NCBI RefSeq assembly: GCF_036365525.1
Contig: NC_090399.1
Span: forward strand, 20,222,529 to 20,286,528
DNA: 64,000 bases
Reading direction: 5' to 3'
Origin: Heterodontus francisci
Lineage: Eukaryota
The notes under the pieces are model-generated. The model had not been told where the DNA came from and ran no database searches. It was given only the letters and a program-made list of their open reading frames with translations. Every line of letters starts with the position of its first letter. Position 1 is the stretch's first letter. The position numbers and the translations under genes were made by a program. Shown one piece after another: positions 1-61,780 of the stretch.

Positions 1-1813
1 AGGGAAGGACACTGAGCTCAGGGACATGGGCACTGATGAAGGGAACTGCTCTGTCCCGTATGAGATCGAGCTTCTTGAGTTATATAGTTCCTGCACCCAT
101 CCTGTCGATTGGTCTATATTCCCTCACACACCTGACTTGTGGCCTTTACTTGATGTTGAGGATTTGGAACGGGATCGGAGTGAAGGGAGAGGTCCGAGCG
201 GATGTGTGCCACTCGGAGACGCCATGGTACTGATAGTTAGTTTGTAAAACAATATCAAATTGATGCAGTATGTATTGCTCTTCTGAGATTTCAACCGAAG
301 AAATGGGTTGCAGCAAAGTAGAGGAAGTTTCTTCAGTCTCCATTTAAGCTGTGCTCCAGCTGACCTCAGCGTGTCTCCACGCAAAACTGTGAAAATTCTT
401 GGCAATGCTTACAAGCTCAATCAGGCTGATCATGTAAGACATTCTATTCTCTCATTAATAGTGAATCTTTTACAAAGGCAATGAATAAAACGGATCTGGT
501 GGCTACCTCAACACGGTGCAGGGTTGGCACCCCAACGTTCTCCCGACGTCGGGTTCCCGACCCCCAGAAGGAAAATCCTTTTCACCAAAAGGAGGCACGG
601 TTGACTTGGCAACAAGTCCACTGTCACACTGAGGCCCTGTCACTAACTGAAAAACGACAGGTGGGAAACCTTCCAGCGCTCTCGACAAGTCTTTTCTTTT
701 CCCCTTGCAGAACCTGCGTTTCCAGTTTTTTTTTAACTTTCTGTCGTTTGGAAATCCCACAGACGATGGTCTAATCTTCATTCTCAATATGGATGGGATA
801 ACCAGCGGGATTCCTGCAGAAATAATTTCCCTATCCCTCTCCACGTTATGGCAGGAGATGGGGAGAACCCACCCACAACCACATCCTCTCCCACCCATTG
901 GAAATTCCATCCCTCAAAAATATTTCTTCTTTCAGAATATTTCGGAGCTGTGTCATATTGTTCTTGTATTTGACAGAGAGTTGGACCTTGTGATTGAGAA
1001 ACTGCAGGTATGTTTCAGGCCGTTGACCCAATATAAATGGCCTCCTTCATTTTGCAGCACATCTCATGACCTTGGGTTTCTACTTGCTTTTGGCTTGACC
1101 AAATGTTCTCGTTTCGCCCTCGTTCCTGCTCTCGAGCAGTGGCTTTTACTGAATTTTCTTTTCTTCACATAACTCAGATATGACATGATCACCCATTTTG
1201 CAGCATTATCCAAATTTAAAATTGCACCACCACCACCGCACAACTCCCCTCATCCCTCGCTCAGTTCCAACCCTAGAAGAAACCATTCTGTCCTTTTTCA
1301 GCGTGGTAGCATTCTTGCCTCCTCGTCAGAACGTCACCAGAGACTTAAACGCACAATCTCGGCTGCCGCTCCAGTGAGGGAGTGCTGCACTGTCGTAGGT
1401 GCTATCTTGTGGATGAGACATTAAACCAAGGCCCTGCCTGCCCTCTCAGGTGGACGGAAAAGACGCTGTGTCACTATTTTAAGGACTTCACCCCTTCCTC
1501 GGCTCTTCGGCTGCTGAAACCCTCATCCAGGACTTTGTTACCTTTCGACTTGACTATTCCAATGTTCTTACGACCAGTCTTCCACATTCTTCCCTCATAA
1601 ATTTGAGGGCATCCTAAACCTTGCTCCCCACGTCTGAACACACACCAAGTCCTGTTCACCAACACCCCTGTGTTTGCTGACTCATTTTGGCTATCAGTTT
1701 AGTAATAAATTGATTTTAAAATTCCCATCCTTGTTTTCAAATGCCACCATGGTCTCACCCCTCCCTATCTCTGTAATCTCCTACAGCCCCACAACCCTCT
1801 GGGATATCGACAC

Positions 1814-2556
1814 TGCCCGACCTGAACCCGATGGGACCTGACATGTGTCTGGTGCGGGTTGGGTCACTCTTCTGGGCCCGGTTTTCGGGATTATGTCGGG
1901 TCTGAGTCAGACACACACAGTATTAATTGGACTTGAAAGGTTGTTTAAAAGGATTAAGATTGGAGCCATGAAGTCAGTGATTGTTTGGTCACAAGGTAAA
2001 CAGAAACCCATGGAGTTGTGCCCATTCAGGTTGTGCCACGCTGTACCAGTATCCGCATTGCTTAAAATAAAGACCTCAGTTGCCCGAAGGCTCAGAAAAT
2101 ATCATTATACATTAACTAGACTCCTGCTTTACAGGTCGAAATACTTGCTGTAAGTTTATCCAGTGAGCAGCTGAGATGCCGAGACCAGGAAGGTCCTGAG
2201 TGATTAATTATTATTACAGTACTGTACTGTATGTGTGGTGGAATGGAGTCCTGACAGTGATCATTTTATATTTTTTTATATAAATACTGTATATTTTATA
2301 ATAATTAATCTCTCAGGACCTTCCTGGTCTCTGCATCTCAGCTGCTCACTGGATAAACTTGCAGCAAGTATTTCAACTGAAAAAGTGAAAAACAGATTCG
2401 GAGTTGGAAGGTAGGTAAAGTGAACATTCCGTTGGTCGGGTTGGGTCGGACTCGGGTCGGGTTGGGCATGGGAAAAAATGGAAGGACTCAGACCAGGTTG
2501 GGCTCGGGTATGATGTGGTTCTGTTGTTTTTTTTTTCAGACCCGAGCAGGCCTTTC
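1814..2556. mobile_element. Non-autonomous DNA transposon (hAT-like MITE) with a 77-bp internal inverted repeat
   Basis: Subterminal CCCGA/TCGGG motif clusters at both ends. Candidate 8-bp target duplication: ATC(T/G)ACAC at 1806-1813 and ATCTACGC at 2557-2564. The host L2-like sequence is continuous across the insertion. Confidence 0.6.
2138..2374. repeat. Inverted repeat with 77-bp arms (2138-2214 and 2298-2374) and an 83-bp spacer
   Basis: The arms are reverse complements with 3 mismatches. Copies at 23168-23404, 39734-39970 and 60647-60883. Confidence 0.95.
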
Positions 2557-7130: not shown

Positions 7131-7836
7131 AAGCACACAGGCTGAAGTGTGTCACATACACACAGAGTAACACACAGGCTGCAGTGTGTCACATTCACAC
7201 AGATTAGCACACAGGCTGGAGGTATGACATACACGCATAGTAACACACAGGCTGCATTGTGTCACAGCAAAGAGTAACAGACAGGCTGCAGTGTGTCACA
7301 TACACACAGAGTAACACACTGGCTGCAGTGTGTCACATTCACACAGATTAGCACACAGGCTGGAGGTATCACATACACACATAGTAACACACAGGCTGCA
7401 TTGTGTCACAGCAAAGAGTAACACACAGGCTGGAGTGTGTCACATTCACACAGAGGAACACACAGGCTGGAATGAGTCACAAATGCAAAGTAACACCACA
7501 GACTGGAGCCAGTCTCTCTCTCTCACAGAGTGGCACAGAGGCTGGATTGTGTCACATACACAAAGTAACACACAGGCTGCAGTGTGTCACACAGAGTAAC
7601 ACGCAGGTTGGAATGAGTCACAAATGCAAAGTAACACACAGGCTGGAGTCAGTCTCACTCGCACACACAGAGTAACACACAGGCTGGAGTTTGTCACATA
7701 CACAGAGTAACACACAGGCTGGAGTATGTCACATACACAGAGTAACACACAGGCTGGAGTATGTCACATACACGCAGAGTAACACAAGTTGGAATGAGTC
7801 ACAAATGCAAAGTAACACACAGGCTGGAGTCAGTCT

Positions 7837-7868
<32 letters not shown>

Positions 7869-7972
7869 CACACAGGCTGGAGTTTGTCACATACACAGAT
7901 AAACACACTGGCTGGAGTGTTTCACACACACACACAGAGTAACACACCGGCTAGAGTGGGTCACACACACAG
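7131..7972 (+). repeat. ~35-bp minisatellite block with a (CA)n microsatellite
   Basis: Tandem CACAGAGTAACACACAGGCTG(G/C)AGTGTGTCACATA variants. Confidence 0.95.
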
Positions 7973-8532
7973 GGAATGTAGCCATCTTGCGGATTTTCTG
8001 ACGGTGGAATTGGATTTGGGCGGCACTTCCGCTCCCTCGCTTTTTGCCTGTTGCCACCCGATTACAAGTGGAAATCAAAGTTTCAGCTGCGGGCATGGGA
8101 GATACATGCGATCATGTGGTGCGGAATACTTTTCATGGTGGAGCCTGCTGTCATTCAGGGAAGCATTATGCATGGCATTGGTATAAATAATCCTTCAGTG
8201 CAATCAGGGAGGCTCATCAACGAGGCCAGTCTTTTTCAGAGACTTCTAGGCTTTTCCCCTTAAATCTTACCCACCCTCACCCATCTTTACACCTGTCGCA
8301 AACAAAGGCTATGGACCCTGGCAACATTACGGCAATAGCACTGAGGACCTGTGCTCCAGAACTTGCCGCGCCCCCAGACAAGCAGATTTGAGATGGTGCG
8401 GGAGGGGCGGGGCGGCGGGTGCGGGCGGGGGGCGGAATAGTAACTGCAGTGAGACTGGGACACCAGTAGATGGAGATGCTGAGCCATTGCTGATGGGAAG
8501 GTTTGGTGCTGCTGAGAGTTTGAAAGTTTCCA

Positions 8533-9049
8533 AACACAGAGTAACACGCTGGCTGGAGTGTGTCACAGGCACAGAGTAACACACTGGCTGGAGTGTGTCA
8601 CATACACAGAGTAACACGCTGGCTGGAGTGTGTCATATCCACAGAGTAACACACTGGCTGGAGTGTGTCACATACACAGAGTAACACGCTGGCTGCAGTG
8701 TGTCATATCCACAGAGTAACACACTGGCTGGAGTATGTCACATACACAGAGTAACATGCTGGCTGGTGTGTGTCACAGGCACAGAGTAACACACTGGTTG
8801 GAGTGTGTCACACGCACACACAGAATAACACACTGGCTGGAGGGTGTCACACACACACAGAATAACACACTGGCTGGAGTGTATCACACACACACGCACA
8901 CTACACACACACACACACACAGAATAAAACACTGGCTGGAGTATGTCACGCACACAGAGTAATACACTGGCTGGAGTGTGTCACACACAAACACACACAC
9001 AGAATAACACACTGGCTGGAGTGTGTACACACACAGAGTAACACACAGA
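8533..9049 (+). repeat. ~35-bp minisatellite block
   Basis: Tandem CACAGAGTAACACACTGGCTGGAGTGTGTCACATA variants. Confidence 0.95.
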
Positions 9050-9056
9050 ATTAGAA

Positions 9057-12031
9057 TTAGAACATTACAGCGCAGTACAGGCCCTTTGGCCCTCGATGTT
9101 GCGCCGACCTGTGAAACCATCTGACCGACACTATTCCATTTTCATCCATATGTCTATCCAATGACCACTTAAATGCCCTTAAAGTTGGCGAGTCTACTAC
9201 TGTTGCAGGCAGGGCGTTCCACGCCCCTACTACTCTCTGAGTAAAGAAACTACCTCTGACATCTGTCCTATATCTATCACCCCTCAACTTAAAGCTATGT
9301 CCCCTCGTGTTTGCCATCACCATCCGAAGAAAAAGACTCTCACTATCCACCCTATATAACCCTCTGATTATCTTATATGTCTCTATTAAGTCACCTCTCC
9401 TCCTCCTTCTCTCCAATGAAAACAACCTCAAGTCCCTCAGCCTTTCCTTGTAAGACCTTCCCTCCATACCAGGCAACATCCTAGTAAATCTCCTCTGCAC
9501 CCTTTCCATAGCTTCCACATCCTTCCTATAATGCGGTGACCAGAACTGCACGCAATACTCCAGGTGCGGCCTCACCAGAGTTTTGTACAGCTGCAGCATG
9601 ACATCGTGGCTCCGAAACTCGATCCCCCTACTAATAAAAGCTAACACACCATATGCCTTCTTAACAGCCCTATTAACCTGGGTAGCAACCTTCAGGGATT
9701 TATGCACCTGGACACCAAGATCTCTCTGTTCATCTACACTACCAAGAATCTTCCCATTAGCCCAGTACTCTGCATTCCTGTTACTCCTTCCAAAGTGAAT
9801 CACCACGCACTTTTCCGCATTAAACTCCATTTGCCATCTCTCAGCCCAGCTCTGCAGCCTATCTATGTCCCTCTGTACCCTACAACATCCTTCGGCACTA
9901 TCCACAACTCCACCGACCTTAGTGTCATCCGCAAATTTACTAACCCACCCTTCTACACCCTCTTCCAGGTCATTTATAAAAATGACAAACAGCAGTGGCC
10001 CCAAAACAGATCCTTGCGGTACACCACTAGTAACTAAACTCCAGGATGAACATTTGCCATCAACCACCACCCTCTGTCTTCTTTCAGCTAGCCAATTTCT
10101 GATCCAAAGCTCTAAATCACCTTCAACCCCATACTTCTGTATTTTCTGCAATAGCCTACCGTGGGGAACCTTATCAAACGCCTTACTGAAATCCATATAC
10201 ACCACATCCACTGCTTTACCCTCATCCACCTGCTTGGTCACCTTCTCGAAAAACTCAATAAGGTTTGTGAGGCACGACCTACCCATCACAAAACCGTGCT
10301 GACTATCGCTAATGAACTTATTCTTTTCAAGATGATTAAACATCCTGTCTCTTATAACCTTTTCCAACATTTTACCCACAACCGAAGTAAGGCTCACAGG
10401 TCTATAATTACCAGGGCTGTCTCTGCTCCCCTTCTTGAACAAGGGGACAACATTTGCTATCCTCCAGTCTTCCGGCACTATTCCTGTCGACAATGACGAC
10501 ATAAAGATCAAGGACAAAGGCTCTGCAATCTCCTCCCTAGCTTCCCAGAGAATCCTAGGATAAATCCCATCTGGCCCAGGGGACCTATCTATTTTCACAC
10601 TTTCCAAAATTGATAACACCTCCTCCTTGTGAACCTCAATCCCATCTAGCCTAGTAGCCTGAATCTCAGTATTCTCCTCGACAACATTTTCTTTCTCTAC
10701 TGTAAATACTGACGCAAAATATTCATTTAACACTTCCCCTAGCTCCTCTGATTCCACACACAACTTCCCACTACTATCCTTGATTGGCCCGAATATAACT
10801 CTAGTCATTCTTTTATTCCTGATATACCTATAGAAAGCCTTAGGGTTTTCCCTGATCCTATCCGCCAATGACTTCTCGTGTCCTCTCCTTGCTCTTCTTA
10901 GCTCTCCCTTTAGATCCTTCCTGGCTAGCTTGTAACTCTCAAGCGCCCTAACTGAGCCTTCACGTCTCATCCTAACATAAGCCTTCTTCTTCCTCTTGAC
11001 AAGCTCTTCAACTTCTTTAGTAAACCACGGCCCCCTCGCTCGACAACTTCCTCCCTGCCTCACAGGTATATACTTATCAAGGACACGCAGTAGCTGCTCT
11101 TTGAATAAGCTCCACATTTCGATTGTTCCCATCCCCTGCAGTTTCCTTCCCCATCCTACGCATCCTAAATCTTGCCTAATCGCATCATAATTTCCTTTCC
11201 CCCAGCTATAATTTTTGCCCTGCGGAATATACCTATCCCTGCCCATCGCTAAGGTAAACCTAACCGAATTGTGATCACTATCACCAAAGTGCTCACCTAC
11301 ATCTAAATCTAACACCTGGCCGGGTTCATTACCCAGTACCAAATCCAATGTGGCATCGCCCCTGGTTGGCCTGTCTACATACTGTGTCAGAAAACCCTCC
11401 TGCACACACTGGACAAAAACTGACCCATCTAAAGTACTCGAACTATAGTATTTCCAGTCGATATTTGGAAAGTTAAAGTCCCCCATAACAACTACCCTGT
11501 TACTCTCGCCCCTGTCGAGAATCACCTTCGCTATCCTTTCCTCTACATCTCTGGAAGTATTTGGAGGTCTATAAAAGACTCCCAACAGGGTGACCTCACC
11601 TCTCCTGTTTCTAACCTCGGCCCATACTACCTCAGTAGACGAGTCCTCAAACGTCCTTTCTGTCGCTGTAATACTCTCCTTGATTAACAATGCCACACCA
11701 CCCCCCCCCCCCCCCCCCCTCCCCCTCTTTTACCATCTTCTCTGTTCTTACTGAAACATCTAAATCCCGGAACCTGCAACATCCATTCCTGCCCCTGCTC
11801 TACCCATGTCTCCGAAATGGCCACTACATCGAGATCCCAGGTACCAACCCATGCTGCAAGCTCACCCACCTTATTCCGGATGCTCCTGGCGTTGAAGTAG
11901 ACACACTTTAAACCAGGTTCTTGCTTGCCAGTGCCCTCTTGCGTCCTTGTAACCTTATCCCTGACCTCACTACTCTCAACATCCTGTACACTGGAACTAC
12001 AATTTAGGTTCCCATCCCCCTGCTGAATTAG
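9057..12031 (-). CDS. CR1 ORF2, AP endonuclease plus reverse transcriptase; one frameshift in the G-run at about 11700-11719
   Basis: Endonuclease motifs YFNARS, SETW, GDFN and SDH. RT motifs DFSKAFD, GVPQGSVLGP and FADD. An 879-aa open frame at 9057-11696 and an upstream N-terminal part in another frame, open to 12031. Confidence 0.93.
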
Positions 12032-12949
12032 TTTAAACCCCCCCGAAGAGCACTAGCAAATCTCCTCCCCAGGATATTGGTACCCCTCTGGTTCAGGTGA
12101 AGACCATCCTGTTTGTAGAGGTCCCACCTACCCCAGAAAGAGCCCCAGTTATCCAGGAAATCAAAACCCTCCCTCCTGCACCATCCCTGCAGCCACGTGT
12201 TCAACTCCTCTCTCTCCCTATTCCTCGCTTCACTATCACGTGGCACGGGCAACAACCCGGAGATAACAACTCTGTTTGTTCTCGCTCTAAGCTTCCACCC
12301 TAGCACCCTGAATTTCTGTCTTAAATCCCCATCTCTCTTCCTACCTATGTCGTTGGTGCCTATGTGGACCACGACTTGGGGCTGGTCCCCCTCCCCCTTA
12401 AGGATCCCAAAAACACGATCCGAGACATCACGAACCCTGGCACCTGGGAGGCAACATACCAACCGTGAGTCTCTCTCGTTCCCACAGAACCTCCTATCTG
12501 TTCCCCTAACTATGGAGTCCCCAATGACTAATGCTCTGCTCCTCTTCCCCTTTCCCTTCTGAGCAACAGGGACAGACTCTGTGCCAGATACCTGTACCCC
12601 ATTGCTTACCCCTGGTAAGTCGTCCCCCGAAACAGTATCCAAAACGGTATACCTGTTGTTGAGAGAAACGGCCACAGGGGATCCCTGCACTGCCTGCTGG
12701 TTCCCTCTCCTTCCCCTGACGGTAACCCATCTACCTACTTCTTTTACCTGAAGTGTGACTACCTCCCCATAACTCCTCTCAATAACCCCCTCCGCCTCCC
12801 GAATGATCCGAAGTTGCTCCAGCTCCAGTTCCCTAACGCGGTTCACGAGGAGCTGGAGTTGGGTGCACTTCCCGCAGATGCAGTCAGCAGGGACACTCTT
12901 GGCGACCCTTACCTCCCACATTCTGCAGGAGGAACATACAACTGCCTTA
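12028..12949 (-). CDS. CR1 ORF1 (zinc finger, coiled coil, SGNH/GDSL esterase); start codon lost by truncation
   Basis: CSSC...CGKC, LQLLVNRVRELELEQL, GDSIVR, HIGTND and DGLHLN motifs. Confidence 0.9.
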
Positions 12950-13089
12950 ACAGACTGGTGTACGTCAAGAATATCAATGTGATACCAAGAAACAACTGAA
13001 GACACTGGATGCTGCAAAGGCAATGGACCTTGACAACGTTCCGGCAATAGTACTGAAGACCAGTACCTGATATGAAATGTGACCCGTGG

Positions 13090-13672
13090 TAAGATGGAAT
13101 TTCTTCTGGAAATCGGTTTTGCAGGATGAATTTCCTGGAATATTTCCAGAATGTGTTGTGACAAGGTCCCAGGCTCATAAGGTTAAACAAGATGAGATGG
13201 ATTCAGATGTTTTCGAGGACAATTCTGATGTTTGGTTGGCTGAAATATTTTTCAGGGATTTGGATGAGGACATTGGTGTTAAAGGCTCCAAGGTTAACAA
13301 TGGGGAATTGTTTAGCAGATCTCCCGTGATTTTGGGATACAACAGGCAGATCCTGATTTTAGGAGCTTGTCTCAGGCGACCTGTTTTGAGCCACAGACTG
13401 AAAAGTTTTATTAGTGTTATTACGTCAAGAAAGAAGAGGAAGTGGAGACCTCTCCGCTGATGAGGATTGGACTGTAATCCATCAAATGGTTGTCCCTCCT
13501 TGCTATCATAGTGTAATTTAGAGAATTGCCAATGAAATCCCAGTCACAGGTCATTTGTGTTTTCCAAAAACTCAGGTTAGGGTAATGACATATTGTTACT
13601 AGCAAAGCTGCATCAGGATGTGGTTCACTATTGTAAGACATGCCACACATGTCAAATGGTTGGGATCCACAA
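13090..13672 (+). mobile_element. Degenerate Gypsy (Gmr1-like) pol fragment with an integrase zinc-binding region
   Basis: FPECVVTRSQ, then across frameshifts KWRP..ADEDWTVIHQMVVPP..GHL..KT..DVVHYCKTCHTCQMVG. Copies at about 29610-30195 and 50522-51108. Confidence 0.75.
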
Positions 13673-14495: not shown

Positions 14496-16487
14496 CACGA
14501 GGAGTGACAGCGCCCATTAAGGCCTGATCACTCACTAATCGAGGAAGAGGTCTTGCAAATAAAGATGAGTGTTGAGGCTGGAGGACACATCCTGCAGGTT
14601 TCTTGTCTAATTAACAGTGTGCCTGTTCTGAACGAAATCTCACACTGACACACAATGCATCGCAAAATTCAGCTGCTTTCAGCTGACGCTCATCAGTCTT
14701 TGCTTGACCTCAGTCCTAAATACTAATTCTTGACCTTCTGTTCTATTTCAGGGCAATGGAATGTGCCCAGAACCTGAGGTGTGGGAAATGGGTTGCACTT
14801 GTGATCATGCAGAAGCACCCACGCTTACTTCCGCAAGCATCAGCTCAGAGACTTGCATTGCCAGTACTTTAGTTGGTATGCAAGATGGTTATGGACTGTT
14901 CGACTCAAGGAGCACCAGAGAATGGAAAATGGGTAGCGGGATTGGATGGTTAGTAAGGGGCTTTCTGTAGGAAGAGCTAACATCTTAAAGAGCACAGCTG
15001 AAGATTTCGAGGACACAGTCAACATTCAAAAACTGATTCCTATTTACCAGGGCTATTTCAGTGCTTTGGGCAGCCTGCCTGCGATTCGACACACAATGAC
15101 AGAGAGCATGGAAAAATCCAGCTCCAGCTATTGGTGGGCGGGGTGTGGGGGTGGGGGGCGCGAGAGGGGGAGGCGTGTGTGTTTGTGAGGGGTGGGGTGG
15201 GCGTGTGAATGGATCATTCAGAACGGTTTTAACACCTTAATGTCGAGAATGGAGTGAGACAATTGAAGTCAACGGAACTGAGTATTGGAAGGGGCGCATA
15301 AAGGGCAGTCGATTCCATGCCACCCACATTGCTTTCATGCCAAAGGCGAACTGTTATCCTGTCGATACATAGACTGCTTTAGGGAAATAGCAGATCCACC
15401 TTGTATTCCTGCTGATTTATATTATTCCTTTTTAGTAATGCATCAAAGACAGCCTGCGCTACAATTAAACTGCTTCTTACAATACAGACATCAACAACGA
15501 CCTGCGGGGCACAAACCAGGCAGAACCACTTTTGCTGCCTTTTCTTCCAGATGCCGCTATTCAGTGCTATTGAAGTCAAGTAGATTGAATATCGGTAGGG
15601 GCGTGTAACAAGCCACCAATGCAATGCCACCTGCTTTGTCAATATCCACCCCCGTGTACTTGCATGGCATGTTTAATGCAGAAAACCATCCCAAAGCACT
15701 TCAGAGAGGCCGAATCAAATACTAATAGTTATTGAACCAAGAGTAATTCTGAGAATAGGATTGGTCAAAAAGGTGAGTGTCAGGGACTGTCTTGAAGGAG
15801 TTGAGGGATAGTAAGGTGGAGCGGTTTAGAGCAGCAATTCCACAGAGCGGGTGTCTGTGGCTCCAGGTTTGACAGCAAGAGGGGATCGAGTCTTTGCTGA
15901 AGATGTCGTAATTGAAGAGGGAGGACAGTTGGGATGTTAGGCATGGAGCAGGTCAAAGGGATAGAAAGAGAGAATAGGCTGAAGATCAGGGAGGGTGGCT
16001 AATCGGAACCTGGACAGTAATAATCGGCGTAGCTTTGACGTTAGACCATTGTGTCAAACCTGTGGTACGGACTGCACCACTCGGGAAGAAGCTCTCCTGA
16101 TTTTTATTTCCAACAAAGTCAAAATTACCCCACTTAGCTCTGCTGGCGTCAAAGGCATGAACCAGGGTTTGAACGTCTGATGCATTGACGAAAAGCTAGA
16201 GTTCGACAACATTAAGACAGTGAAACTTGTCGGTCTATATTCACTTCTCGGTTCAACCTAAACACAATGTCCCATTAACGCTGAGCTGCTGTGATCAAAA
16301 TGCAGCAACGGAGCAAGAGTCTCAGAGGCGAGGATTTTTTCAGTCTGAGATTGCACACTGTTTTTAACTCTCTGGGGATCGGGGAGTTCACGTTAATTGC
16401 TGGTTTATGAAGAGATGTAGTAACTTGTTTGTTTGAAAGCATCTAGCTAATGACACCGGTTCTGTGACCTCACTCTCTCACTGGACG

Positions 16488-16505
16488 ATTGGCTCGTGTA
16501 CAAAT
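16488..16505 (+). promoter_or_regulatory. Putative core promoter of GPCR copy 1: inverted CCAAT (ATTGG) plus variant TATA (TACAAAT)
   Basis: ATTGG at 16488-16492 and TACAAAT at 16499-16505, 60 nt upstream of the ATG. The paralogues have TATAAAT here. Confidence 0.5.
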
Positions 16506-16558
16506 GAGGTTGTTTCAGTGCATTGCCTCGCATCTACCGCTCCTGGTTTTCGAAGAAA

Positions 16559-16622
16559 ATGGGACGACAGGCACTTCCGATAGAAATGTTGTATCCTATT
16601 CTCGCAGTTATTGGCATTCCTG
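16559..16622 (+). CDS. GPR139/GPR142-like class A GPCR copy 1, exon 1 (MGRQALPIEMLYPILAVIGIP)
   Basis: AAAATGG Kozak context, 64 nt ending at a G|GTAAGT donor (phase 1). It joins exon 2 in frame to rebuild TM1 (GIPANLL). Confidence 0.9.
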
Positions 16623-18692: not shown

Positions 18693-19591
18693 CAAACCTG
18701 CTGTCATTTCTGGTTCTTTTCCAAAGGAAATGCGGTCTTTCCAAAGGAATCACTCATTATATGATGGCCATGGCCGTGGGAGACCTCATGGTCCTTATCT
18801 TTAATGTTATTGTGAGCCAAATCATCAAGTATCATTTTCCAGATTCATTGCTGAACTACACATCCACGTGTCGTTTTACTGTCTTCATGCAAGGGTTTAG
18901 CATTCAGCTCTCTATCTGGTTCACAATGTCGTTCACCTTTGACCGTTTTGTCGCAATTTGTTGCCAGAAATTGAAATCAAGATATTGCACCGAAAGGACA
19001 GCCACCATGGTTGTAACGGCCATGTGTGTGCTCAACATTTTGATCAATATTCCCATGCCTTTCCGCTATGAGCCCGATTATATTCTCAACAATATACAGT
19101 GGGGCTGCCGCACCATCACAGGATATTTTACTTCACCCGCATGGAAGGTTCACCAATGGATTACCAATCTCTCAAGTACATTACTTCCAATTCCTTTGCT
19201 GCTGCTGTTGAACTCTCTCACCGTCAGGCACATCTTATTAGCCAGTAGAGCTCGCAAAGCCCTGAAGAGCAACAACAATGGAAAAACCGGCAGTGATCCC
19301 GAGATGAAGAACAGAAGAACATCCATCATTCTACTCTTTGCTATCTCGGGCACTTTTATTGTGTTGTCGGCCCCTATTACCGTAATACACATTTGTGTCG
19401 GTGTCACACAGACACTCGATTTCCAAGGTTCAAACTCACTTTATTTGGCAATTAGAATCACATTTCTGTTGATGTGCACCAGCTCCTGTACAAACACTTG
19501 TATTTATGCACTGACACAGAGGAGATTCAGAGCGGAGATCAGGAATATGGTGAAATATCCGTATTATCTCATTGTTAAATTATTTAAATAA
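18693..19591 (+). CDS. GPR139/GPR142-like class A GPCR copy 1, exon 2 (spliced protein 320 aa)
   Basis: Polypyrimidine tract and AG acceptor at 18691-18692. Hydrophobic TM segments with motifs CGLSK, AMAVGDL, FTFDRFVAICC, an ECL2 Cys, LLNSLTVRHIL, DPEM.NRR and SSCTNTCIY..TQRRFR. Confidence 0.93.
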
Positions 19592-33030: not shown

Positions 33031-33083
33031 GAGGTTTTTTCAGTGCATTGCCTCGGATCAACCGCTCCTAGTTTTTGGAGAAA

Positions 33084-33147
33084 ATGGGACGACAGGCACT
33101 TCCAATAGAAATGTTCTTTCCGATTCTCGCAGTTATTGGCATTCCTG
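33084..33147 (+). CDS. GPR139-like GPCR copy 2, exon 1 (MGRQALPIEMFFPILAVIGIP)
   Basis: ATG in Kozak context, GTAAGT donor at 33148. Confidence 0.9.
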
Positions 33148-46490: not shown

Positions 46491-49467
46491 TTAGAACATT
46501 ACAGCGCAGTACAGGCCCTTTGGCCCTCGATGTTGCGCCGACCTGTGAAACCATCTGACCGACACTATTCCATTTTCATCCATATGTCTATCCAATGACC
46601 ACTTAAATGCCCTTAAAGTTGGCGAGTCTACTACTGTTGCAGGCAGGGCGTTCCACGCCCCTACTACTCTCTGAGTAAAGAAACTACCTCTGACATCTGT
46701 CCTATATCTATCACCCCTCAACTTAAAGCTATGTCCCCTCGTGTTTGCCATCACCATCCGAAGAAAAAGACTCTCACTATCCACCCTATATAACCCTCTG
46801 ATTATCTTATATGTCTCTATTAAGTCACCTCTCCTCCTCCTTCTCTCCAATGAAAACAACCTCAAGTCCCTCAGCCTTTCCTTGTAAGACCTTCCCTCCA
46901 TACCAGGCAACATCCTAGTAAATCTCCTCTGCACCCTTTCCATAGCTTCCACATCCTTCCTATAATGCGGTGACCAGAACTGCACGCAATACACCAGGTG
47001 CGGCCTCACCAGAGTTTTGTACAGCTGCAGCATGACATCGTGGCTCCGAAACTCGATCCCTCTACTAATAAAAGCTAACACACCATATGCCTTCTTAACA
47101 GCCCTATTAACCTGGGTAGCAACCTTCAGGGATTTATGCACCTGGACACCAAGATCTCTCTGTTCATCTACACTACCAAGAATCTTCCCATTAGCCCAGT
47201 ACTCTGCATTCCTGTTACTCCTTCCAAAGTGAATCACCACGCACTTTTCCGCATTAAACTCCATTTGCCATCTCTCAGCCCAGCTCTGCAGCCTATCTAT
47301 GTCCCTCTGTACCCTACAACATCCTTCGGCACTATCCACAACTCCACCGACCTTAGTGTCATCCGCAAATTTACTAACCCACCCTTCTACACCCTCTTCC
47401 AGGTCATTTATAAAAATGACAAACAGCAGTGGCCCCAAAACAGATCCTTGCGGTACACCACTAGTAACTAAACTCCAGGATGAACATTTGCCATCAACCA
47501 CCACCCTCTGTCTTCTTTCAGCTAGCCAATTTCTGATCCAAAGCTCTAAATCACCTTCAACCCCATACTTCTGTATTTTCTGCAATAGCCTACCGTGGGG
47601 AACCTTATCAAACGCCTTACTGAAATCCATATACACCACATCCACTGCTTTACCCTCATCCACCTGCTTGGTCACCTTCTCGAAAAACTCAATAAGGTTT
47701 GTGAGGCACGACCTACCCATCACAAAACCGTGCTGACTATCGCTAATGAACTTATTCTTTTCAAGATGATTAAACATCCTGTCTCTTATAACCTTTTCCA
47801 ACATTTTACCCACAACCGAAGTAAGGCTCACAGGTCTATAATTACCAGGGCTGTCTCTGCTCCCCTTCTTGAACAAGGGGACAACATTTGCTATCCTCCA
47901 GTCTTCCGGCACTATTCCTGTCGACAATGACGACATAAAGATCAAGGACAAAGGCTCTGCAATCTCCTCCCTAGCTTCCCAGAGAATCCTAGGATAAATC
48001 CCATCTGGCCCAGGGGACCTATCTATTTTCACACTTTCCAAAATTGATAACACCTCCTCCTTGTGAACCTCAATCCCATCTAGCCTAGTAGCCTGAATCT
48101 CAGTATTCTCCTCGACAACATTTTCTTTCTCTACTGTAAATACTGACGCAAAATATTCATTTAACACTTCCCCTAGCTCCTCTGATTCCACACACAACTT
48201 CCCACTACTATCCTTGATTGGCCCGAATCTAACTCTAGTCATTCTTTTATTCCTGATATACCTATAGAAAGCCTTAGGGTTTTCCCTGATCCTATCCGCC
48301 AATGACTTCTCGTGTCCTCTCCTTGCTCTTCTTAGCTCTCCCTTTAGATCCTTCCTGGCTAGCTTGTAACTCTCAAGCGCCCTAACTGAGCCTTCACGTC
48401 TCATCCTAACATAAGCCTTCTTCTTCCTTTTGACAAGCTCTTCAACTTCTTTAGTAAACCACGGCTCCCTCGCTCGACAACTTCCTCCCTGCCTCACAGG
48501 TATATACTTATCAAGGACACGCAGTAGCTGCTCTTTGAATAAGCTCCACATTTCGATTGTTCCCATCCCCTGCAGTTTCCTTCCCCATCCTACGCATCCT
48601 AAATCTTGCCTAATCGCATCATAATTTCCTTTCCCCCAGCTATAATTTTTGCCCTGCGGAATATACCTATCCCTGCCCATCGCTAAGGTAAACCTAACCG
48701 AATTGTGATCACTATCACCAAAGTGCTCACCTACATCTAAATCTAACACCTGGCCGGGTTCATTACCCAGTACCAAATCCAATGTGGCATCGCCCCTGGT
48801 TGGCCTGTCTACATACTGTGTCAGAAAACCCTCCTGCACACACTGGACAAAAACTGACCCATCTAAAGTACTCGAACTATAGTATTTCCAGTCGATATTT
48901 GGAAAGTTAAAGTCCCCCATAACAACTACCCTGTTACTCTCGCCCCTGTCGAGAATCATCTTCGCTATCCTTTCCTCTACATCTCTGGAAGTATTTGGAG
49001 GTCTATAAAAGACTCCCAACAGGGTGACCTCACCTCTCCTGTTTCTAACCTCGGCCCATACTACCTCAGTAGACGAGTCCTCAAACGTCCTTTCTGTCGC
49101 TGTAATACTCTCCTTGATTAACAATGCCACACCACCACCCCCCCCCCCCCACCCCTCCCCCTCTTTTACCATCTTCTCTGTTCTTACTGAAACATCTAAA
49201 TCCCGGAACCTGCAACATCCATTCCTGCCCCTGCTCTACCCATGTCTCCGAAATGGCCACTACATCGAGATCCCAGGTACCAACCCATGCTGCAAGCTCA
49301 CCCACCTTATTCCGGATGCTCCTGGCGTTGAAGTAGACACACTTTAAACCAGGTTCTTGCTTGCCAGTGCCCTCTTGCGTCCTTGTAACCTTATCCCTGA
49401 CCTCACTACTCTCAACATCCTGTACACTGGAACTACAATTTAGGTTCCCATCCCCCTGCTGAATTAG
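46491..49467 (-). CDS. CR1 ORF2 (endonuclease plus RT), frameshifted in the G-run at about 49134-49155
   Basis: Same motifs as the unit 1 copy, with 4 amino-acid differences visible in the long frame. Confidence 0.93.
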
Positions 49468-50385
49468 TTTAAACCCCCCCGAAGAGCACTAGCAAATCTC
49501 CTCCCCAGGATATTGGTACCCCTCTGGTTCAGGTGAAGACCATCCTGTTTGTAGAGGTCCCACCTACCCCAGAAAGAGCCCCAGTTATCCAGGAAATCAA
49601 AACCCTCCCTCCTGCACCATCCCTGCAGCCACGTGTTCAACTCCTCTCTCTCCCTATTCCTCGCTTCACTATCACGTGGCACGGGCAACAACCCGGAGAT
49701 AACAACTCTGTTTGTTCTCGCTCTAAGCTTCCACCCTAGCACCCTGAATTTCTGTCTTAAATCCCCATCTCTCTTCCTACCTATGTCGTTGGTGCCTATG
49801 TGGACCACGACTTGGGGCTGGTCCCCCTCCCCCTTAAGGATCCCAAAAACACGATCCGAGACATCACGAACCCTGGCACCTGGGAGGCAACATACCAACC
49901 GTGAGTCTCTCTCGTTCCCACAGAACCTCCTATCTGTTCCCCTAACTATGGAGTCCCCAATGACTAATGCTCTGCTCCTCTTCCCCTTTCCCTTCTGAGC
50001 AACAGGGACAGACTCTGTGCCAGATACCTGTACCCCATTGCTTACCCCTGGTAAGTCGTCCCCCGAAACAGTATCCAAAACGGTATACCTGTTGTTGAGA
50101 GAAACGGCCACAGGGGATCCCTGCACTGCCTGCTGGTTCCCTCTCCTTCCCCTGACGGTAACCCATCTACCTACTTCTTTTACCTGAGGTGTGACTACCT
50201 CCCCATAACTCCTCTCAATAACCCCCTCCGCCTCCCGAATGATCCGAAGTTGCTCCAGCTCCAGTTCCCTAACGCGGTTCACGAGGAGCTGGAGTTGGGT
50301 GCACTTCCCGCAGATGCAGTCAGCAGGGACACTCTTGGCGACCCTTACCTCCCACATTCTGCAGGAGGAACATACAACTGCCTTA
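49464..50385 (-). CDS. CR1 ORF1 (zinc finger, coiled coil, SGNH esterase), 5'-truncated
   Basis: GDSIVR, HIGTND and DGLHLN motifs. Confidence 0.9.
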
Positions 50386-53300
50386 ACAGACTGGTGTACG
50401 TCAAGAATATCAATGTGATACCAAGAAACAACTGAAGACACTGGATGCTGCAAAGGCAATGGACCTTGACAACGTTCCGGCAATAGTACTGAAGACCAGT
50501 ACCTGATATGAAATGTGACCCGTGGTAAGATGGAATTTCTTCTGGAAATCGGTTTTGCAGGATGAATTTCCTGGAATATTTCCAGAATGTGTTGTGACAA
50601 GGTCCCAGGCTCATAAGGTTAAACAAGATGAGATGGATTCAGATGTTTTCGAGGACAATTCTGATGTTTGGTTGGCTGAAATATTTTTCAGGGATTTGGA
50701 TGAGGACATTGGTGTTAAAGGCTCCAAGGTTAACAATGGGGAATTGTTTAGCAGATCTCCCGTGATTTTGGGATACAACAGGCAGATCCTGATTTTAGGA
50801 GCTTGTCTCAGGCGACCTGTTTTGAGCCACAGACTGAAAAGTTTTATTAGTGTTATTACGTCAAGAAAGAAGAGGAAGTGGAGACCTCTCCGCTGATGAG
50901 GATTGGACTGTAATCCATCAAATGGTTGTCCCTCCTTGCTATCATAGTGTAATTTAGAGAATTGCCAATGAAATCCCAGTCACAGGTCATTTGTGTTTTC
51001 CAAAAACTCAGGTTAGGGTAATGACATATTGTTACTAGCAAAGCTGCATCAGGATGTGGTTCACTATTGTAAGACATGCCACACATGTCAAATGGTTGGG
51101 ATCCACAGCCTATATCTTTTCCTTTGCCACCTATCTCAATAAAAGCAGATTTCCTTTCATTATCAAAAGTCTTTTCTTTCCAATTTCTCTGAAAGTTTCC
51201 AAATTGAGGCCTGTGACAACTGCTTTGTGAATCAATTCATAATCATGTGCTACTACTGCGGCTTCCTTTATTTTACAAACTTCATTTTTTAAAATTTGTT
51301 TGTGGGATGTGGGCGTTGCTGGCTAGGCCAGCATTTATTGCCCATCCCTAAATGCCTTTGAACTGAGTGGCTTGCGAGGCCATTTCAAAATGCTTTTTTG
51401 TGTCTGGAGTCAGATGGAGGTCAGACCACGTAAGGATGGCAGATTTCCTTCCGAAAAGGACATTAGTTAAACAGATGGGTTTTTATAACAACTGACAAAG
51501 ATTTCATGGTCACCATTAAACTAGCTTTTTAATTCCAGAATTGTGAAGAAAATTCAAACTTCACCTTCACCTATGGTGGGATTCGATACCATGTCCCCAG
51601 ATTTTTAGTTTGTGCTCTGGAATACTAGTTTAATGACATTAACACTCTGCCGCGAACTCCCCCATGTTGTTTCATTTGGAAACTTATTCCTGAACGAATA
51701 ATATGTTTCAAATCTTCCATCAGAATTACTTCCCTCAGGCTCTCAAAGTCTTGTGCAATCTTTATTGACCTACACCACCTATCAAATTCAATCGTGTCTT
51801 TCAAAAGGAAATAGGATAAATACTTGAAGGGAAAAGAAATGCGAGTAGACGGGGAAAGGACCGGATGTGGGACTGGATAAATTGCTCTTGCAGAGAGTAG
51901 GCACGGGCTTGATGGGCCGAATCACCTCCTTCACGAGGAGTGAGAGCGCCCATTAAGGCCCGATCACTCACTAATCGAGGAAGAGGTCTTGCAAATAAAG
52001 ATGAGTGTTGAGGCTGGAGGACACATCCTGCAGGTTTCTTGTCTAATTAATAGTGTGCCTGTTCTGAACGAAATCTCACACTGACACACAATGCATAGGA
52101 AAATTCAGCTGCTTTCAGCTGACGCTCATCAGTCTTTGCTTGACCTCAGTCCTAAATACTAATTCTTGACCTTCTGTTCTATTTCAGGGCAATGGAATGT
52201 GCCCAGAACCTGAGGTGTGGGAAATGGGTTGCACTTGTGATCATGCGGAAGCACCCACGCTTACTTCCGCAAGCATCAGCTCAGAGACTTGCATTGCCAG
52301 TACTTTAGTTGGTATGCAAGATGGTTATGGACTGTTCGACTCAAGGAGCAGCAGAGAATGGAAAATGGGTAGCGGGATAGGATGGTTAGTAAGGGGCTTT
52401 CTGTAGGAAGAGCTAACATCTTAAAGAGCACAACTGAAGATTTCGAGGACACAGTCAACATTCAAAAACTGATTCCTATTTACCAGGGATTTTTCAGTGC
52501 ATTGGGCAGCCTGCCTGCGATTCGACACACAATGACAGAGAGCATGGAAAAATCCAGCTCCAGCTGTTGGAGAGGCGGTGAGGGGGTGGGGGTGTTGGGG
52601 GTGTGTGTGTTTGTGAGGGGTGGGGTGGGCGTGTGTATGGATCATTCAGAACGGTTTTAACACCTTAATGTCGAGAATGGAGTGAGACAATTGAAGTCAA
52701 CGGAACTGAGTATTGGATGGTGCGCATAAAGGGCAGTCGATTCCATGCCACCCACATTGCTTTCATGCCGAATGCAAACTATTATCCTGTAGATTTTTAG
52801 ACTGCTTTAGGGAAATAGCAGATCCACCTTGTATTCCTGCTGATTTATATTATTCCTTTTTAGTAATGCATCAAAGACAGCCTGCGCCACAAATAAACTG
52901 CTTCAGACAGTACAGACATCAACAACGACCTGCGAGGCAGAAACCAGGCAGAACCACTTTTGCTGCCTTTTCTTCCAGATGCCGATATTCAGTGCTATTG
53001 AAGTCAAGTAGATTGAATATCAGCAGGGGCGTGTAACGAGCCACCAATGCAATGTCACCTGCTTTGTCAATATCCACTCCCGTGTACTTGTATGGCATGT
53101 TTAATGCAGAAAACCATCACAAAGCACTTCAGAGAGGCCGAATCAAATAATAATAGATATTGAACCAAGAGTAATTCTGAGAATAGGATTGGTCAAAAAG
53201 GTGGGTGTTAGGGACTGTCTTAAAGCAGTTGAGGGAGAGTAAGGTGGAGCGGTTTAGAGCAGCAATTCCACAGAGCGGGAGTCTGTGGCTCCAGGTTTGA

Positions 53301-53922
53301 GAGCAAGAGGGGATCGAATGGGGAGTCTTTGCTGTAGAGGTCGTAATTGAAGAGGGAGGACAGTTGGGAAGTTAGGCATGGAGCAGGTCACAGGGATAGA
53401 AAGAGAGAATAGGCGGAAGTTCAGGGAGGGTGGCTAATTCGAACCTGGACAGGAATAATCGGCGTAGCTTTGACGTTAGACCATTGTGTAAAACCTGTGG
53501 TATGGAGTGCACCAGTCGGGAAGAAGCTCTCCTGATTTTTATTTCCAACAAAGTCGAAATTACCCCACTTAGCTCAGCTTGTGTCAAAGGCATGAACCAG
53601 GGTTTGAACGTCTGATGCATTGACGAAAAGCTGGAGTTCGACAACATTAAGACGGTGAAACTTGTCGGTCTATATCCACTTCTCGGTTCAACCTAAACCC
53701 AATGTCCCATTAATGCTGAGCTGCTGCGATCAAAATGCAGCAACGGAGCAAGAGTCTCAGAGGCGAGGATTTTTTCAGTCTGAGATTGCACACTGTTTTT
53801 AATTCTCTGGGGATCGGGGAGTTCACGTTAATTGCTGGTTTATGAAGAGATGTAGTAACTTGTTTGTTTGAAAGCATCTAGCTAATGACACCGGTTCTGT
53901 GACCTCACTCTCTCACTGGACG

Positions 53923-53940
53923 ATTGGCTCGTGTATAAAT
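53923..53940 (+). promoter_or_regulatory. Putative CCAAT plus TATA promoter of GPCR copy 3
   Basis: ATTGG at 53923-53927 and TATAAAT at 53934-53940; ATG at 53994. Confidence 0.55.
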
Positions 53941-53993
53941 GAGGTTGTTTCAGTGCATTGCCTCGTATCAACCGCTCCTGGTTTTCGGAGAAA

Positions 53994-54057
53994 ATGGGAC
54001 GACAGGCACTTCCGATAGAAATGTTGTATCCGATTCTCGCAGTTATTGGCATTCCTG
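53994..54057 (+). CDS. GPR139-like GPCR copy 3, exon 1 (MGRQALPIEMLYPILAVIGIP)
   Basis: ATG in Kozak context, GTAAGT donor at 54058. Confidence 0.9.
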
Positions 54058-56135: not shown

Positions 56136-57034
56136 CGAACCTGCTGTCAGTTTTGGTTCTTTTCCAAAGGAAATGCGGTCTTTCCAAAGGAATCACTCGT
56201 TATATGATGGCCATGGCCGTGGGAGACCTCATGGTCCTTATCTTTAATGTTATTGTGAACGAAATCATCAAGTATCATTTTCCAGATTCATTGCTGAACT
56301 ACACTTCCGCGTGTCGTTTTACTGTCTTCATGCAAGGGTTTAGCATTCAGCTCTCTATCTGGTTCACAATGTCGTTCACCTTTGACCGTTTTGTCGCAAT
56401 TTGTTGCCAGAAATTGAAATCAAGATATTGCACCGAAAGGACAGCCACCACGGTTATAACGACCATGTGTGTGCTCAACATTTTGAACAATATCCCCATG
56501 CCTTTCCGCTATGAGCCCGATTATACTCTCAACAATATACAGTGGGGCTGCCGCACCGTCACAGGATATTTTACTTCACCCGCATGGAAGATTCACCAAT
56601 GGATTACCATCCTCTCAAGTACATTACTTCCAATTCCTTTGCTGCTGCTGTTGAACTCTCTCACCGTCAGGCACATTTTATTCGCCAGTAGAGCTCGCAA
56701 AGCCCTGAAGAGCAACAACAATGGAAAAACCGGCAGTGATCCCGAGATGAAGAACAGAAGAACATCCATCATTCTACTCTTTGCTATCTCGGGCAGTTTT
56801 ATTGTGTTGTCGGCGCCTATTACCGTAATACACATCTGTGTCGGTGTCACACAGACAGTCGATTTCCAAGGTTCAAACTCACTTTATTTGGCAATTAGAA
56901 TCACATTTCTGTTGATGTGCACCAGCTCCTGTACAAACACTTGTATTTATGCACTGACACAGAGGAGATTCAGAGCGGAGATCAAAAATATGGTGAAATA
57001 TCCGTATTATCTCATTGTTAAATTATTTAAATAA
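56136..57034 (+). CDS. GPR139-like GPCR copy 3, exon 2 (spliced protein 320 aa)
   Basis: TTTCTCCCAG acceptor and an 899-nt open frame. Confidence 0.93.
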
Positions 57035-58518: not shown

Positions 58519-61500
58519 AGGGAAGGACACTGAGCTCAGGGACATGGGCACTGATGAAGGGAACTGCTCTGTCCCGTATGAGATCGAGCTTCTTGAGTTA
58601 TATAGTTCCTGCACCCATCCTGTCGATTGGTCTATATTCCCTCACACACCTGACTTGTGGCCTTTACTTGATGTTGAGGATTTGGAACGGGATCGGGGTG
58701 AAGGGAGAGGTGCGAGCGGACGTGTGCCACTCGGAGACGCCATGGTACTGATAGTTAGTTTGTAAAACAATATCAAATTGATGCAGTACGTATTGCTCTT
58801 CTGAGATTTCAACTGAAGAAATGGGTTGCAGCAAAGTAGAGGAAGTTTCTTCAGTCTCCATTTAAGCTGTGCTCCAGCTGACCTCAGCGTGTCTCCACGC
58901 AAAACTGTGAAAATTCTTGGCAATGCTTACAAGCTCAATCAGGCTGATCATGTAAGACATTCTATTCTCTCATTAATAGTGAATCTTTTACAAAGGCAAT
59001 GAATAAAACGGATCTGGTGGCTACCTCAACACGGTGCAGGGTTGGCACCCCAACGTTCTCCCGACGTCGGGTTCCCGACCCCCAGAAGGAAAATCCTTTT
59101 CACCAAAAGGAGGCACGGTTGACTTGGCAACAAGTCCACTGTCACACTGAGGCCCTGTCACTAACTGAAAAACGACAGGTGGGAAACCTTCCAGCGCTCT
59201 CGACAAGTCTTTTCTTTTCCCCTTGCAGAACCTGCGTTTCCAGTTTTTTTTTTTAACTTTCTGTCGTTTGGAAATCCCACAGACGATGTTCTAATCTTCA
59301 TTCTCAATATGGATGGGATAACCAGCGGGATTCCTGCAGAAATAATTTCCCTATCCCTCTCCACGTTATGGCAGGAGATGGGGAGAACCCACCCACAACC
59401 ACATCCTCTCCCACCCATTGGAAATTCCATCCCTCAAAAATATTTCTTCTTTCAGAATATTTCGGAGCTGTGTCATATTGTTCTTGTATTTGACAGAGAG
59501 TTGGACCTTGTGATTGAGAAACTGCAGGTCTGTTTCAGGCCGTTGACCCAATATAAATGGCCTCCTTCATTTTGCAGCACATCTCATGACCTTGGGTTTG
59601 TACTTGCTTTTGGCTTGACCAACTGTTCTCGTTTCGCCCTCGTTCCTGCTCTCGAGCAGTGGCTTTTACTGAATTTTCTTTTCTTCACATAACTCAGATA
59701 TGACATGATCACCCATTTTGCAGCATTATCCAAATTTAAAATTGCACCACCACCACCGCACAACTCCCCTCATCCCTCGCTCAGTTCCAACCCTAGAAGA
59801 AACCATTCTGTCCTTTTTCAGCGTGGTAGCATTCTTGCCTCCTCGTCAGAACGTCACCAGAGACTTAAACGCACAATCTCGGCTGCCGCTCCAGTGAGGG
59901 AGTGCTGCACTGTCGTAGGTGCTATCTTGTGGATGAGACATTAAACCAAGGCCCTGCCTGCCCTCTCAGGTGGACGGAAAAGACGCTGTGTCACTATTTT
60001 AAGGACTTCACCCCTTCCTCGGCTCTTCGGCTGCTGAAACCCTCATCCAGGACTTTGTTACCTCTAGACTTGACTATTCCAATGTTCTTACGACAAGTCT
60101 TCCACATTCTTCCCTCATAAATTTGAGGGCATCCTAAACCTTGCTCCCCACGTCTGAAGACACACCAAGTCCTGTTCACCAACACCCCTGTGTTTGCTGA
60201 CTCATTTTGGCTATCAGTTTAGTAATAAATTGATTTTAAAATTCCCATCCTTGTTTTCAAATGCCACCATGGTCTCACCCCTCCCTACCTCTGTAATCTC
60301 CTACAGCCCCACAACCCTCTGGGATATCTACACTGCCCGACCTGAACCCGATGGGACCTGACATGTGTCTGGTCACTCTTCTGGGCCCGTTTTTCGGGCT
60401 TATGTCGGGTCTGAGTCAGACACACACAGTATTAGTTGGACTTGAAAGGTTGTTTAAAAGGATTAAGATTGGAGCCATGAAGTCAGTGATTGTTTGGTCA
60501 CAAGGTAAACAGAAACCCATGGAGTTGTGCCCATTCAGGTTGTGCCACGCTGTACCAGTATCCGCATTGCTTAAAATAAAGACCTCAATTGCCCGAAGGC
60601 TCAGAAAATATCATTATACATTAACTAGACTCCTGCTTTACAGGTCGAAATACTTGCTGTAAGTTTATCCAGTGAGCAGCTGAGATGCCGAGACCAGGAA
60701 GGTCCTGAGTGATTAATTATTATTCCAGTACTGTACTGTATGTGTGGTGGAATGGAGTCCTGACAGTGATCATTTTATATTTTTTTATATAAATACTGTA
60801 TATTTTATAATAATTAATCTCTCAGGACCTTCCTGGTCTCTGCATCTCAGCTGCTCACTGGATAAACTTGCAGCAAGTATTTCAACTGAAAAAGTGAAAA
60901 ACAGATTCGGAGTTGGAAGGTAGGTAAAATGAGCATTCCGTTGGTCGGGTTGGGTCGGACTCGGGTCGGGTTGGGCATGGGAAAAAATGGAAGGACTCAG
61001 ACCAGGTTGGGCTCGGGTATGATGTGGTTCTGTTGTTTTTTTTTTCAGACCCGAGCAGGCCTTTCATCTACGCTTCTCTGATTCTGGCCTCGTGAGCTCC
61101 AACATTGGTGGCTGTGACTTCAGGTGCCTAGCCCCAAGCTCTGGAATTCCCTCACTCAACCTCTCCACTTCTCTCTCCTCCTTAAAGAAATTCATTAAAA
61201 ACCTACCACTCTGACCAAGCTTCTGGTCATCAGCTGTAATATCATCTTATGTCACTTGGTCAAAGTTTGCTTATAATGCTCTTGTGAAGTGCCTTGTGAT
61301 GTTATATTACATTAAAGGTGCAATATAAATGCAAGTTGTTTTTGTTGTTGTTGAAGAAGACTGGGGGTGTTCTCCCCAACTTCACTAAAACAGATGATAT
61401 AGTCGTTTATCTCATTGCTGTTTGTGGGAGTTTGCTGCTGTGTGGAAACTGGATGCTGCATTGTCTACATTTCAAGAGTGACTGCATTTCAAAAAGGAGT

Positions 61501-61780
61501 CGAATTGGCTGTGATGCACTTTTGGATGTCCTGGGGTGGTGAAAGGTGATTTATAAATGGAAATCTTTCAGGTCTTGCTTTACTGAAGACCAGCGTGGTC
61601 TGAAATGCTCAGTCAGATGACTGTGCATACAACCGAACAATTCAAAGGTCAGGTGCATCAGAAGGGAAAAACTCAGGTAGCAGAGACACTGAGAGATATA
61701 TGAAGCAGGAAAACAAATTTGAATCAAAACAGTTGTTGCAAAGGAAAGTGTTTAACCTCACTTCAAAATAGAAATAATAA
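58519..61780 (+). repeat. Partial duplication unit 4 (first ~3.27 kb; includes the MITE at 60334-61065)
   Basis: Collinear with 1 to about 3270, after which homology breaks. Confidence 0.93.

Follow-up and report, generated by a model that had tools for sequence, protein, structure and literature searches.

The 64,000-nucleotide stretch of the Heterodontus francisci genome that we analyzed (NCBI RefSeq assembly GCF_036365525.1, contig NC_090399.1, positions 20,222,529 to 20,286,528 of the forward strand; in the following, "the window") carries 3 genes for G-protein-coupled receptors (GPCRs) that by their sequence are of class A (rhodopsin-like) and belong to a family with thousands of loci in this shark. 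Since the family combines a highly variable putative ligand pocket with a constrained cytoplasmic side, we consider it fairly probable (about 0.6) that it serves as a repertoire of chemical-sensing (chemosensory) receptors.

Each of the 3 genes is composed of a first coding exon of 64 nucleotides (21 codons plus 1 nucleotide) that ends in a phase-1 GTAAGT donor, a GT-AG intron of 2.07 kb, and a second exon of 899 nucleotides preceded by an acceptor AG; with splicing predicted from the sequence, all spliced frames encode 320 amino acids. A sequence-only reading of the window had proposed just these 3 two-exon receptors, with proteins differing by 24 (gene 1 vs. 2), 17 (1 vs. 3), and 11 (2 vs. 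3) residues, and we confirmed both the genes and the figures. Against the Pfam family 7tm_1, the second exons score 68 to 71 bits (cut-off 30.5; E about 1e-19).

The same reading had seen in these genes a possible part of a lineage-specific birth-and-death family, and here the genome goes beyond what was proposed, with thousands of copies that bear a sequence signature of many ligands. A 24-nucleotide pattern for the motif DRF[VI][AS]ICC of transmembrane helix (TM) 3 has 5,430 exact genome matches, and a 32-nucleotide pattern for a motif at the start of TM6 has 4,033, while both reversed controls have 0. Capture-recapture with these 2 patterns on contigs C1-C16, where the matches to both were complete (77 and 74 matches, 47 in common), gives an estimate of 6,600-8,500 loci. 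A search within the shark's own genome returned 12,688 candidates, and 130 of the best 132, which were scored and are biased accordingly, had no stop. Of the 115 unique loci sampled through the motifs, 77 had an open exon 2; this sample was drawn from intron-anchored matches (30 of 36), rare-codon matches (50 of 134), and 40 loci spread by hand over the matches to both motifs, with 5 duplicates dropped; it is clustered by subfamily rather than random and gives no distribution per chromosome. Multiplying 5,430 by 0.67 yields about 3,600 open exons; the figure drops to near 2,000 at the lowest when an exon 1 must have been found as well and rises to about 5,000 on the higher total, which suggests roughly 2,000-5,000 intact family genes in this genome. 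The 104 open proteins fall into 47 clusters at 80% identity, with a median pairwise identity of 50%. Family loci were seen to span tens of megabases, from 0.02 to at least 60 Mb on contig C21 and from 7.5 to 42 Mb on C28, and whole chromosome arms there may consist largely of receptor arrays. Broken copies have been amplified as well: 4 pseudogenes on C28 (L044, L047, L048, and L051) carry one common insertion of about 0.6-0.9 kb in loop 2.

The residues on which class A receptors depend for activation, together with other hallmark positions (N1.50, D2.50, the DRF motif, C3.25 with its loop-2 cysteine, P5.50, N7.49, and Y7.53), are retained in 46-48 of 48 family representatives, which suggests that the proteins are likely signaling receptors. 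P6.50 and P7.50 are mostly replaced in the family, and W6.48 is present in 42 of 48; residue 247 of the window genes is a serine instead of this toggle tryptophan. Among the 48 representatives, sequence entropy amounts to 2.58 bits at 24 positions that we take, from standard class A numbering, to face the pocket, compared to 1.12 bits at other TM positions (p = 2e-9; the pocket set comes without TM1 and TM4, and helix anchors were set by hand). The single-copy sister gene of the family (see below) has no such excess, with 0.71 bits in the pocket vs. 0.86 at other TM positions (47 representatives; p = 0.31), at a similar mean identity (56% vs. 53%). The pattern was repeated in 37 database members of the family (2.21 vs. 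1.02 bits), and the most conserved part of the receptors is the cytoplasmic face, with an entropy of 0.93 compared to 2.07 on the extracellular side. Recent copies behave likewise: the ratio of nonsynonymous to synonymous differences per site (pN/pS), pooled over 10 groups and counted without a tree, rises from 0.32 on the cytoplasmic face through 0.43 at other TM positions and 0.84 in the loops to 1.15 in the pocket. The receptor core and the cytoplasmic face are under purifying selection, and a variable pocket next to a fixed signaling side is, as far as sequences tell, the pattern of many inputs feeding one output.

What these pockets bind would not simply follow from the best-known relative. 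GPR139 recognizes tryptophan and phenylalanine through pocket residues E108, F109, H187, W241, R244, and N271 (PMC7318219). In the corresponding columns, window gene 2 has Q, G, T, S, I, and F, and in the family at large only W241 is mostly retained (42 of 48), with H187 found in 17 of 48; since the residues are mostly absent, the ligands likely differ. In generic numbering, the family has not retained E3.32, F3.33, R6.51, or N7.39 of GPR139, and, unlike GPR139, it has kept the cysteines of C3.25 and loop 2.

The sequence-only reading had derived the receptors from within the GPR139/GPR142 clade, an origin that did not hold: our tree makes the family a sister lineage, and an approximately unbiased (AU) test, run without a mixture model, speaks against a clade of the family with GPR139 and GPR142 (p = 0.026). 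In the IQ-TREE phylogeny (LG+G4; 60 rows and 283 columns, picked from a 180-row FastTree with added rows for the single-copy gene), the family forms a single clade (support 100/100) that is joined first by a single-copy vertebrate gene with a lamprey/bichir gene (98/96) and next by amphioxus genes (100/98), and this assemblage is sister to GPR139 plus GPR142 (99/92). The resulting superclade lies apart from invertebrate neuropeptide receptors and other class A receptors, with a support of 95 in FastTree (180 rows) and 99/92 in IQ-TREE. Distant relatives were taken from a profile search started with GPR139/142 (20 of them named). In these trees, which knowingly held no sequences of olfactory receptors (ORs), TAAR, V1R, V2R, or T2R, the family groups firmly with genes of the GPR139 type. 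In both trees, the catshark protein P0357 branches earliest within the family.

We also considered the window genes as copies of GPR139 itself and rejected this idea because tree and AU test place the family outside and true GPR139 is one separate locus: a GPR139-specific pattern has one genome match, on contig C24, and the shark protein is 88% identical to human GPR139. Likenesses to GPR139 nonetheless extend from sequence to fold and gene structure. Human GPR139 is the best PDB match by sequence (E 4e-7), and a confident structural model of the white-shark relative P0002, predicted to have 7 helices plus helix 8 (predicted local distance difference test score 89), has GPR139 (7vug) as its best fold match by a narrow margin, followed by peptide receptors. 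A phase-1 intron in TM1 before N1.50 is common to shark GPR139 (L031), the sister gene (L188), and most open family loci; for shark GPR139, it was placed by means of the acceptor and of database proteins, and exon 1 was not found in the 60 kb upstream of exon 2.

The nearest relative of the family, with the same intron position, is the single-copy sister gene, an orphan that makes a third paralog in the GPR139 group and that we found in sharks, coelacanth, sturgeon, teleosts, amphibians, turtles, and squamates, with no mammal or bird among the 120 listed matches. It probably corresponds to one of three GPR210 sets to which Rinne and colleagues gave names in 2019 (GPR210A/B; PMC6504862), in a study that had no shark data. 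In contrast to the family, the sister gene occurs once in this genome (L188; G000:C25:37863886-37864857) and has an invariant, charged pocket (E2.61, D3.29, R6.51, and D7.36). Two of its database entries are named as TMEM183A isoforms, which hints at a neighboring gene. Further out, the next-nearest protein-atlas clusters contain protostome receptors for MIP, FMRFamide, proctolin, and myosuppressin (neighborhood of Pfam 7TM_GPCR_Srw), which share a common origin with GPR139/142 (PMC8514136) but form a separate branch of the tree, where most such rows are unnamed. No vertebrate ligand precursor is known for this protostome-type group according to the same paper (PMC8514136).

Of the best 120 of 1,500 database matches, 117 were named relatives, all from sharks and rays (17 species), with a protein of Heterodontus francisci (P0001) as the nearest of them; the other 3 were unnamed, and no chimaera was found among these 120. 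Most of the relatives carry the label "probable G-protein coupled receptor 139". The window's own subfamily has relatives in white shark (77%), sawfish (64%), skate (57%), and electric ray (56%), and because of this distribution it likely predates the split of sharks and rays. We found no description of a GPR139-like expansion in the literature searched, with subscription journals mostly outside that search, so that within these bounds the sequences are public under automatic names while the family appears to be undescribed. Cartilaginous fishes are said to have a relative paucity of GPCRs (PMC8455134), and PMC10620051 contains no passage on GPCRs.

Locally, the window genes are part of an array of 16 copies with 92-100% identity at 19.93-20.28 Mb of contig C29, all of them with an open exon 2 in the search of the shark's own genome. 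We could rebuild 13 of the 16 copies in full, and these all encode 320 amino acids in 12 distinct versions; 2 others have an exon 1 by BLAST that is off the exact pattern, and the last one had no exon 1 match in the 5.6 kb examined. No family match was found in the 40 kb past the window, a satellite-rich stretch, so that the window genes close the array. Introns differ by 2.3-4.8%, and pN/pS among the 16 copies lies at 0.33-0.45 in all 4 receptor regions. Because of this intron divergence and the purifying selection on coding changes, the copies appear to be under constraint, and we rejected an assembly artifact as their source.

Just 5' of exon 1, 24 representatives hand-picked across diverse subfamilies share an ordered block of Fox-like, homeodomain-like, and Ebf-like motifs followed by TATAAA. 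Its elements are found far more often than in shuffled sequences, with Fox-like motifs in 14 of 24 (0.9 in shuffles), homeodomain-like motifs in 11 of 24 (0.7), and TATAAA in 18 of 24 (3.8; two of them off position), while an Ebf-like 10-mer with no more than 2 mismatches lies within 32 nucleotides before the TATA box in 16 of 24, compared to 6 of 95 control windows and to a mean of 1.8 after shuffling. A strict 26-nucleotide pattern of the Fox and homeodomain motifs has 1,341 matches in the genome and 0 in the control. The motifs are conserved while the flanks have diverged. In the mouse, Lhx2 and Ebf sites are a feature of OR promoters and enhancers (PMC5608512), and we regard the upstream block as a lead toward olfactory neurons, not as proof. 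In 3 of 13 local copies (window positions 16470-16480; L194 and L196), TACAAA replaces TATAAA, a change that could lower the expression of these copies.

Based on these features, we propose that, in early cartilaginous fishes, copies would have arisen from an ancestral single-copy receptor of the group of GPR139, GPR142, and GPR210-like genes and would have spread as blocks of 15-60 kb were duplicated in tandem. All copies would have kept one G-protein output while the pocket of each was retuned to differing water-soluble ligands, which by kinship might be amino-acid derivatives or peptides, and the shared promoter would direct sparse expression in a single class of chemosensory cells, for which olfactory neurons are the most likely candidate. 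The probability given above is for chemical sensing in general; that the role is specifically olfactory is a more tentative proposition to which we give somewhat less than even odds. The same reserve applies to the possible existence of a fifth olfactory receptor family in sharks and rays that would have evolved independently, from a GPR139-related orphan, and be expressed with one or a few members per olfactory neuron from the shared Fox/homeodomain/Ebf/TATA promoter. Sharks are described as having large noses and tiny known receptor repertoires (PMC10116579).

No RNA data set was listed as carrying the window exon, and contigs from 3 sequencing runs that we guessed to be RNA match exon 2 of another subfamily at 80% likeness (43, 78, and 24 contigs from varied members), with 2 of the matching contigs, in one run, at a depth of about 81. 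GPR139 labels were not found in the readable supplements of PMC11372145, PMC13188829, PMC10529500, and PMC11806052.

Several observations weigh against a chemosensory role. Regarding selection, the excess of the pocket pN/pS (1.15) over 1 lacks significance (p = 0.17), and the 16-copy array of the window shows no favoring of the pocket (0.37). Regarding intactness, about a third of the sampled loci are broken, and only 25 of 46 open loci have an exon 1 with a start methionine at a distance of up to about 6.7 kb; the others may have longer introns or no exon 1. Regarding regulation, an exact Ebf site occurs in 0 of 29 upstream regions, the window's own Ebf-like site has 2 mismatches and is thus weak, the spacing in the shark deviates by one base from that of the one mouse composite probe compared, and the motifs were chosen after seeing the data among sequences of common ancestry. 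Fox, Ebf, and homeodomain factors are, moreover, active in many cell types. The contig rows listed contained no spliced joint, and 2 loose ends read as intron acceptors, so that the contigs are possibly DNA or pre-mRNA and give a weak hint of expression. Finally, nearly every olfactory neuron of the catshark is a microvillous Go/TRPC2 cell with V2R expression, and expression of ORs is absent (PMC10116579), while no GPCR is among the top 50 olfactory-specific catshark genes (PMC11979771), a list in which sparsely expressed multi-copy genes would be missed.

The rival that survives best, unlikely as we consider it, is a repertoire for innate-immune or barrier sensing on leukocytes or epithelial sentinel cells that would detect microbial or parasite products, comparable to formyl-peptide receptors or MRGPRs. 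A hypervariable pocket combined with a fixed output and with birth-and-death turnover is just as compatible with pathogen-driven families, lymphocytes are another place where Ebf and Fox factors are active, and the 3 runs with matching contigs are of unspecified tissue. On the other hand, homeodomain-like and Ebf-like motifs beside a TATA box resemble olfactory regulation, and the readable supplements of 2 shark immune single-cell papers contain no row named GPR139, a weak argument as labels may differ and one file comprises just 4,750 characters. Alternatively, a few functional receptors might have been multiplied mostly passively, as passengers of satellite- and LINE-driven segmental duplication (LINE, long interspersed nuclear element) in a 6-Gb genome, with most copies redundant or silent. 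Satellite blocks and a LINE within units of 96-98% identity, the broken third of the sampled loci, and the occurrence of identical or near-identical copies would be expected from such a process; also, about a quarter of the sampled matches lie on contigs numbered above 51 (10 of 36; at most 34 of 134), and some of these may be false duplicates. We nevertheless find this explanation improbable in view of the purifying selection even in the youngest copies (pN/pS 0.33-0.45), the focus of diversity on the pocket, the dozens of old subfamilies (with shark and ray relatives for the window's own), and the conservation of upstream motifs amid diverged flanks. Equally improbable is an internal signaling or cell-identity code, with receptors for the shark's own diversified peptides (reproductive, gut, or neural) or with tags for neuron or gamete recognition: the wider clade includes invertebrate neuropeptide receptors (PMC8514136), peptide receptors are the top structural neighbors after GPR139, and GPR139 itself is a brain receptor, but receptors for endogenous ligands keep invariant pockets, as the sister gene does. 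We know of no matching expansion of peptide precursors, for which no search was made.

In its genomic habit, the putative chemosensory family resembles the OR, TAAR, V1R, V2R, T2R, and FPR families, with tandem clusters on many chromosomes, a short N-terminus, many pseudogenes, a variable pocket with a conserved cytoplasmic face, and compact common upstream motifs. It appears to differ from them in its GPR139-related ancestry and has a coding intron in TM1. Its estimated size is near or above the 1,948 ORs of the elephant (quoted in PMC11979771). The presence of class A receptors in the thousands, hidden by the automatic name "probable GPR139", contradicts the view of cartilaginous fishes as poor in GPCRs (PMC8455134) already at the level of sequence. 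The combination of large noses with tiny receptor sets has been explained as trading discrimination for sensitivity (PMC10116579), an explanation that becomes directly testable. Should the family be olfactory with thousands of intact members, no larger GPCR repertoire would have been reported for any vertebrate, and the notion of sharks smelling with a few dozen receptors would be overturned. The family would also mean that a sensing repertoire arose independently in vertebrates, and its pocket variants would form a natural library built on the scaffold of GPR139, a drug target. Even with an immune instead of an olfactory role, a receptor family of very large size would have gone undescribed.

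Table 1. Receptor genes and repeats of the window (positions counted from its first nucleotide)
Feature	Position	Strand	Remarks
Gene 1 predicted promoter/5' untranslated region (UTR)	16420..16558	+	Fox-like, homeodomain-like, Ebf-like motifs; TATA box altered to TACAAA
Gene 1 exon 1	16559..16622	+	Short N-terminus and first half of TM1; phase-1 GT donor
Gene 1 exon 2	18693..19591	+	Remainder of 7TM receptor and stop
Gene 2 predicted promoter/5' UTR	32945..33083	+	Fox-like at -133, TATAAA at -60 from ATG
Gene 2 exon 1	33084..33147	+	
Gene 2 exon 2	35227..36125	+	
Gene 3 predicted promoter/5' UTR	53855..53993	+	
Gene 3 exon 1	53994..54057	+	
Gene 3 exon 2	56136..57034	+	Last gene of the array
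CR1-type LINE, unit 1	9060..13182	-	GDSL-esterase open reading frame (ORF) 1; endonuclease/reverse transcriptase ORF2
CR1-type LINE, unit 3	46494..50618	-	Same element as unit 1 LINE
35-37-bp satellite blocks within units	7134..9046; also 28143-29482, 44730-46480	.	
35-37-bp satellite array bordering gene array	61888..64000	.	Continues past window end

At offsets of about 16.5 and 20.9-21.0 kb, the repeated units align as blocks of 96-98% identity. That almost everything else in them is debris of transposable elements, as the sequence-only reading had it, understates the CR1-type LINE on the minus strand, which is near full length. This LINE measures 4.1 kb and is present in 2 of the 3 units, the 16.6-kb unit being without it, and its frames encode an esterase of 384 and an endonuclease/reverse transcriptase of 890-914 amino acids. 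The start of ORF2 lies in a different frame across a run of G, and the LINE was duplicated together with the unit. Satellite blocks are present inside every unit and may promote unequal crossing-over; beyond the array, the same 35-37-bp satellite is dense for at least 40 kb.

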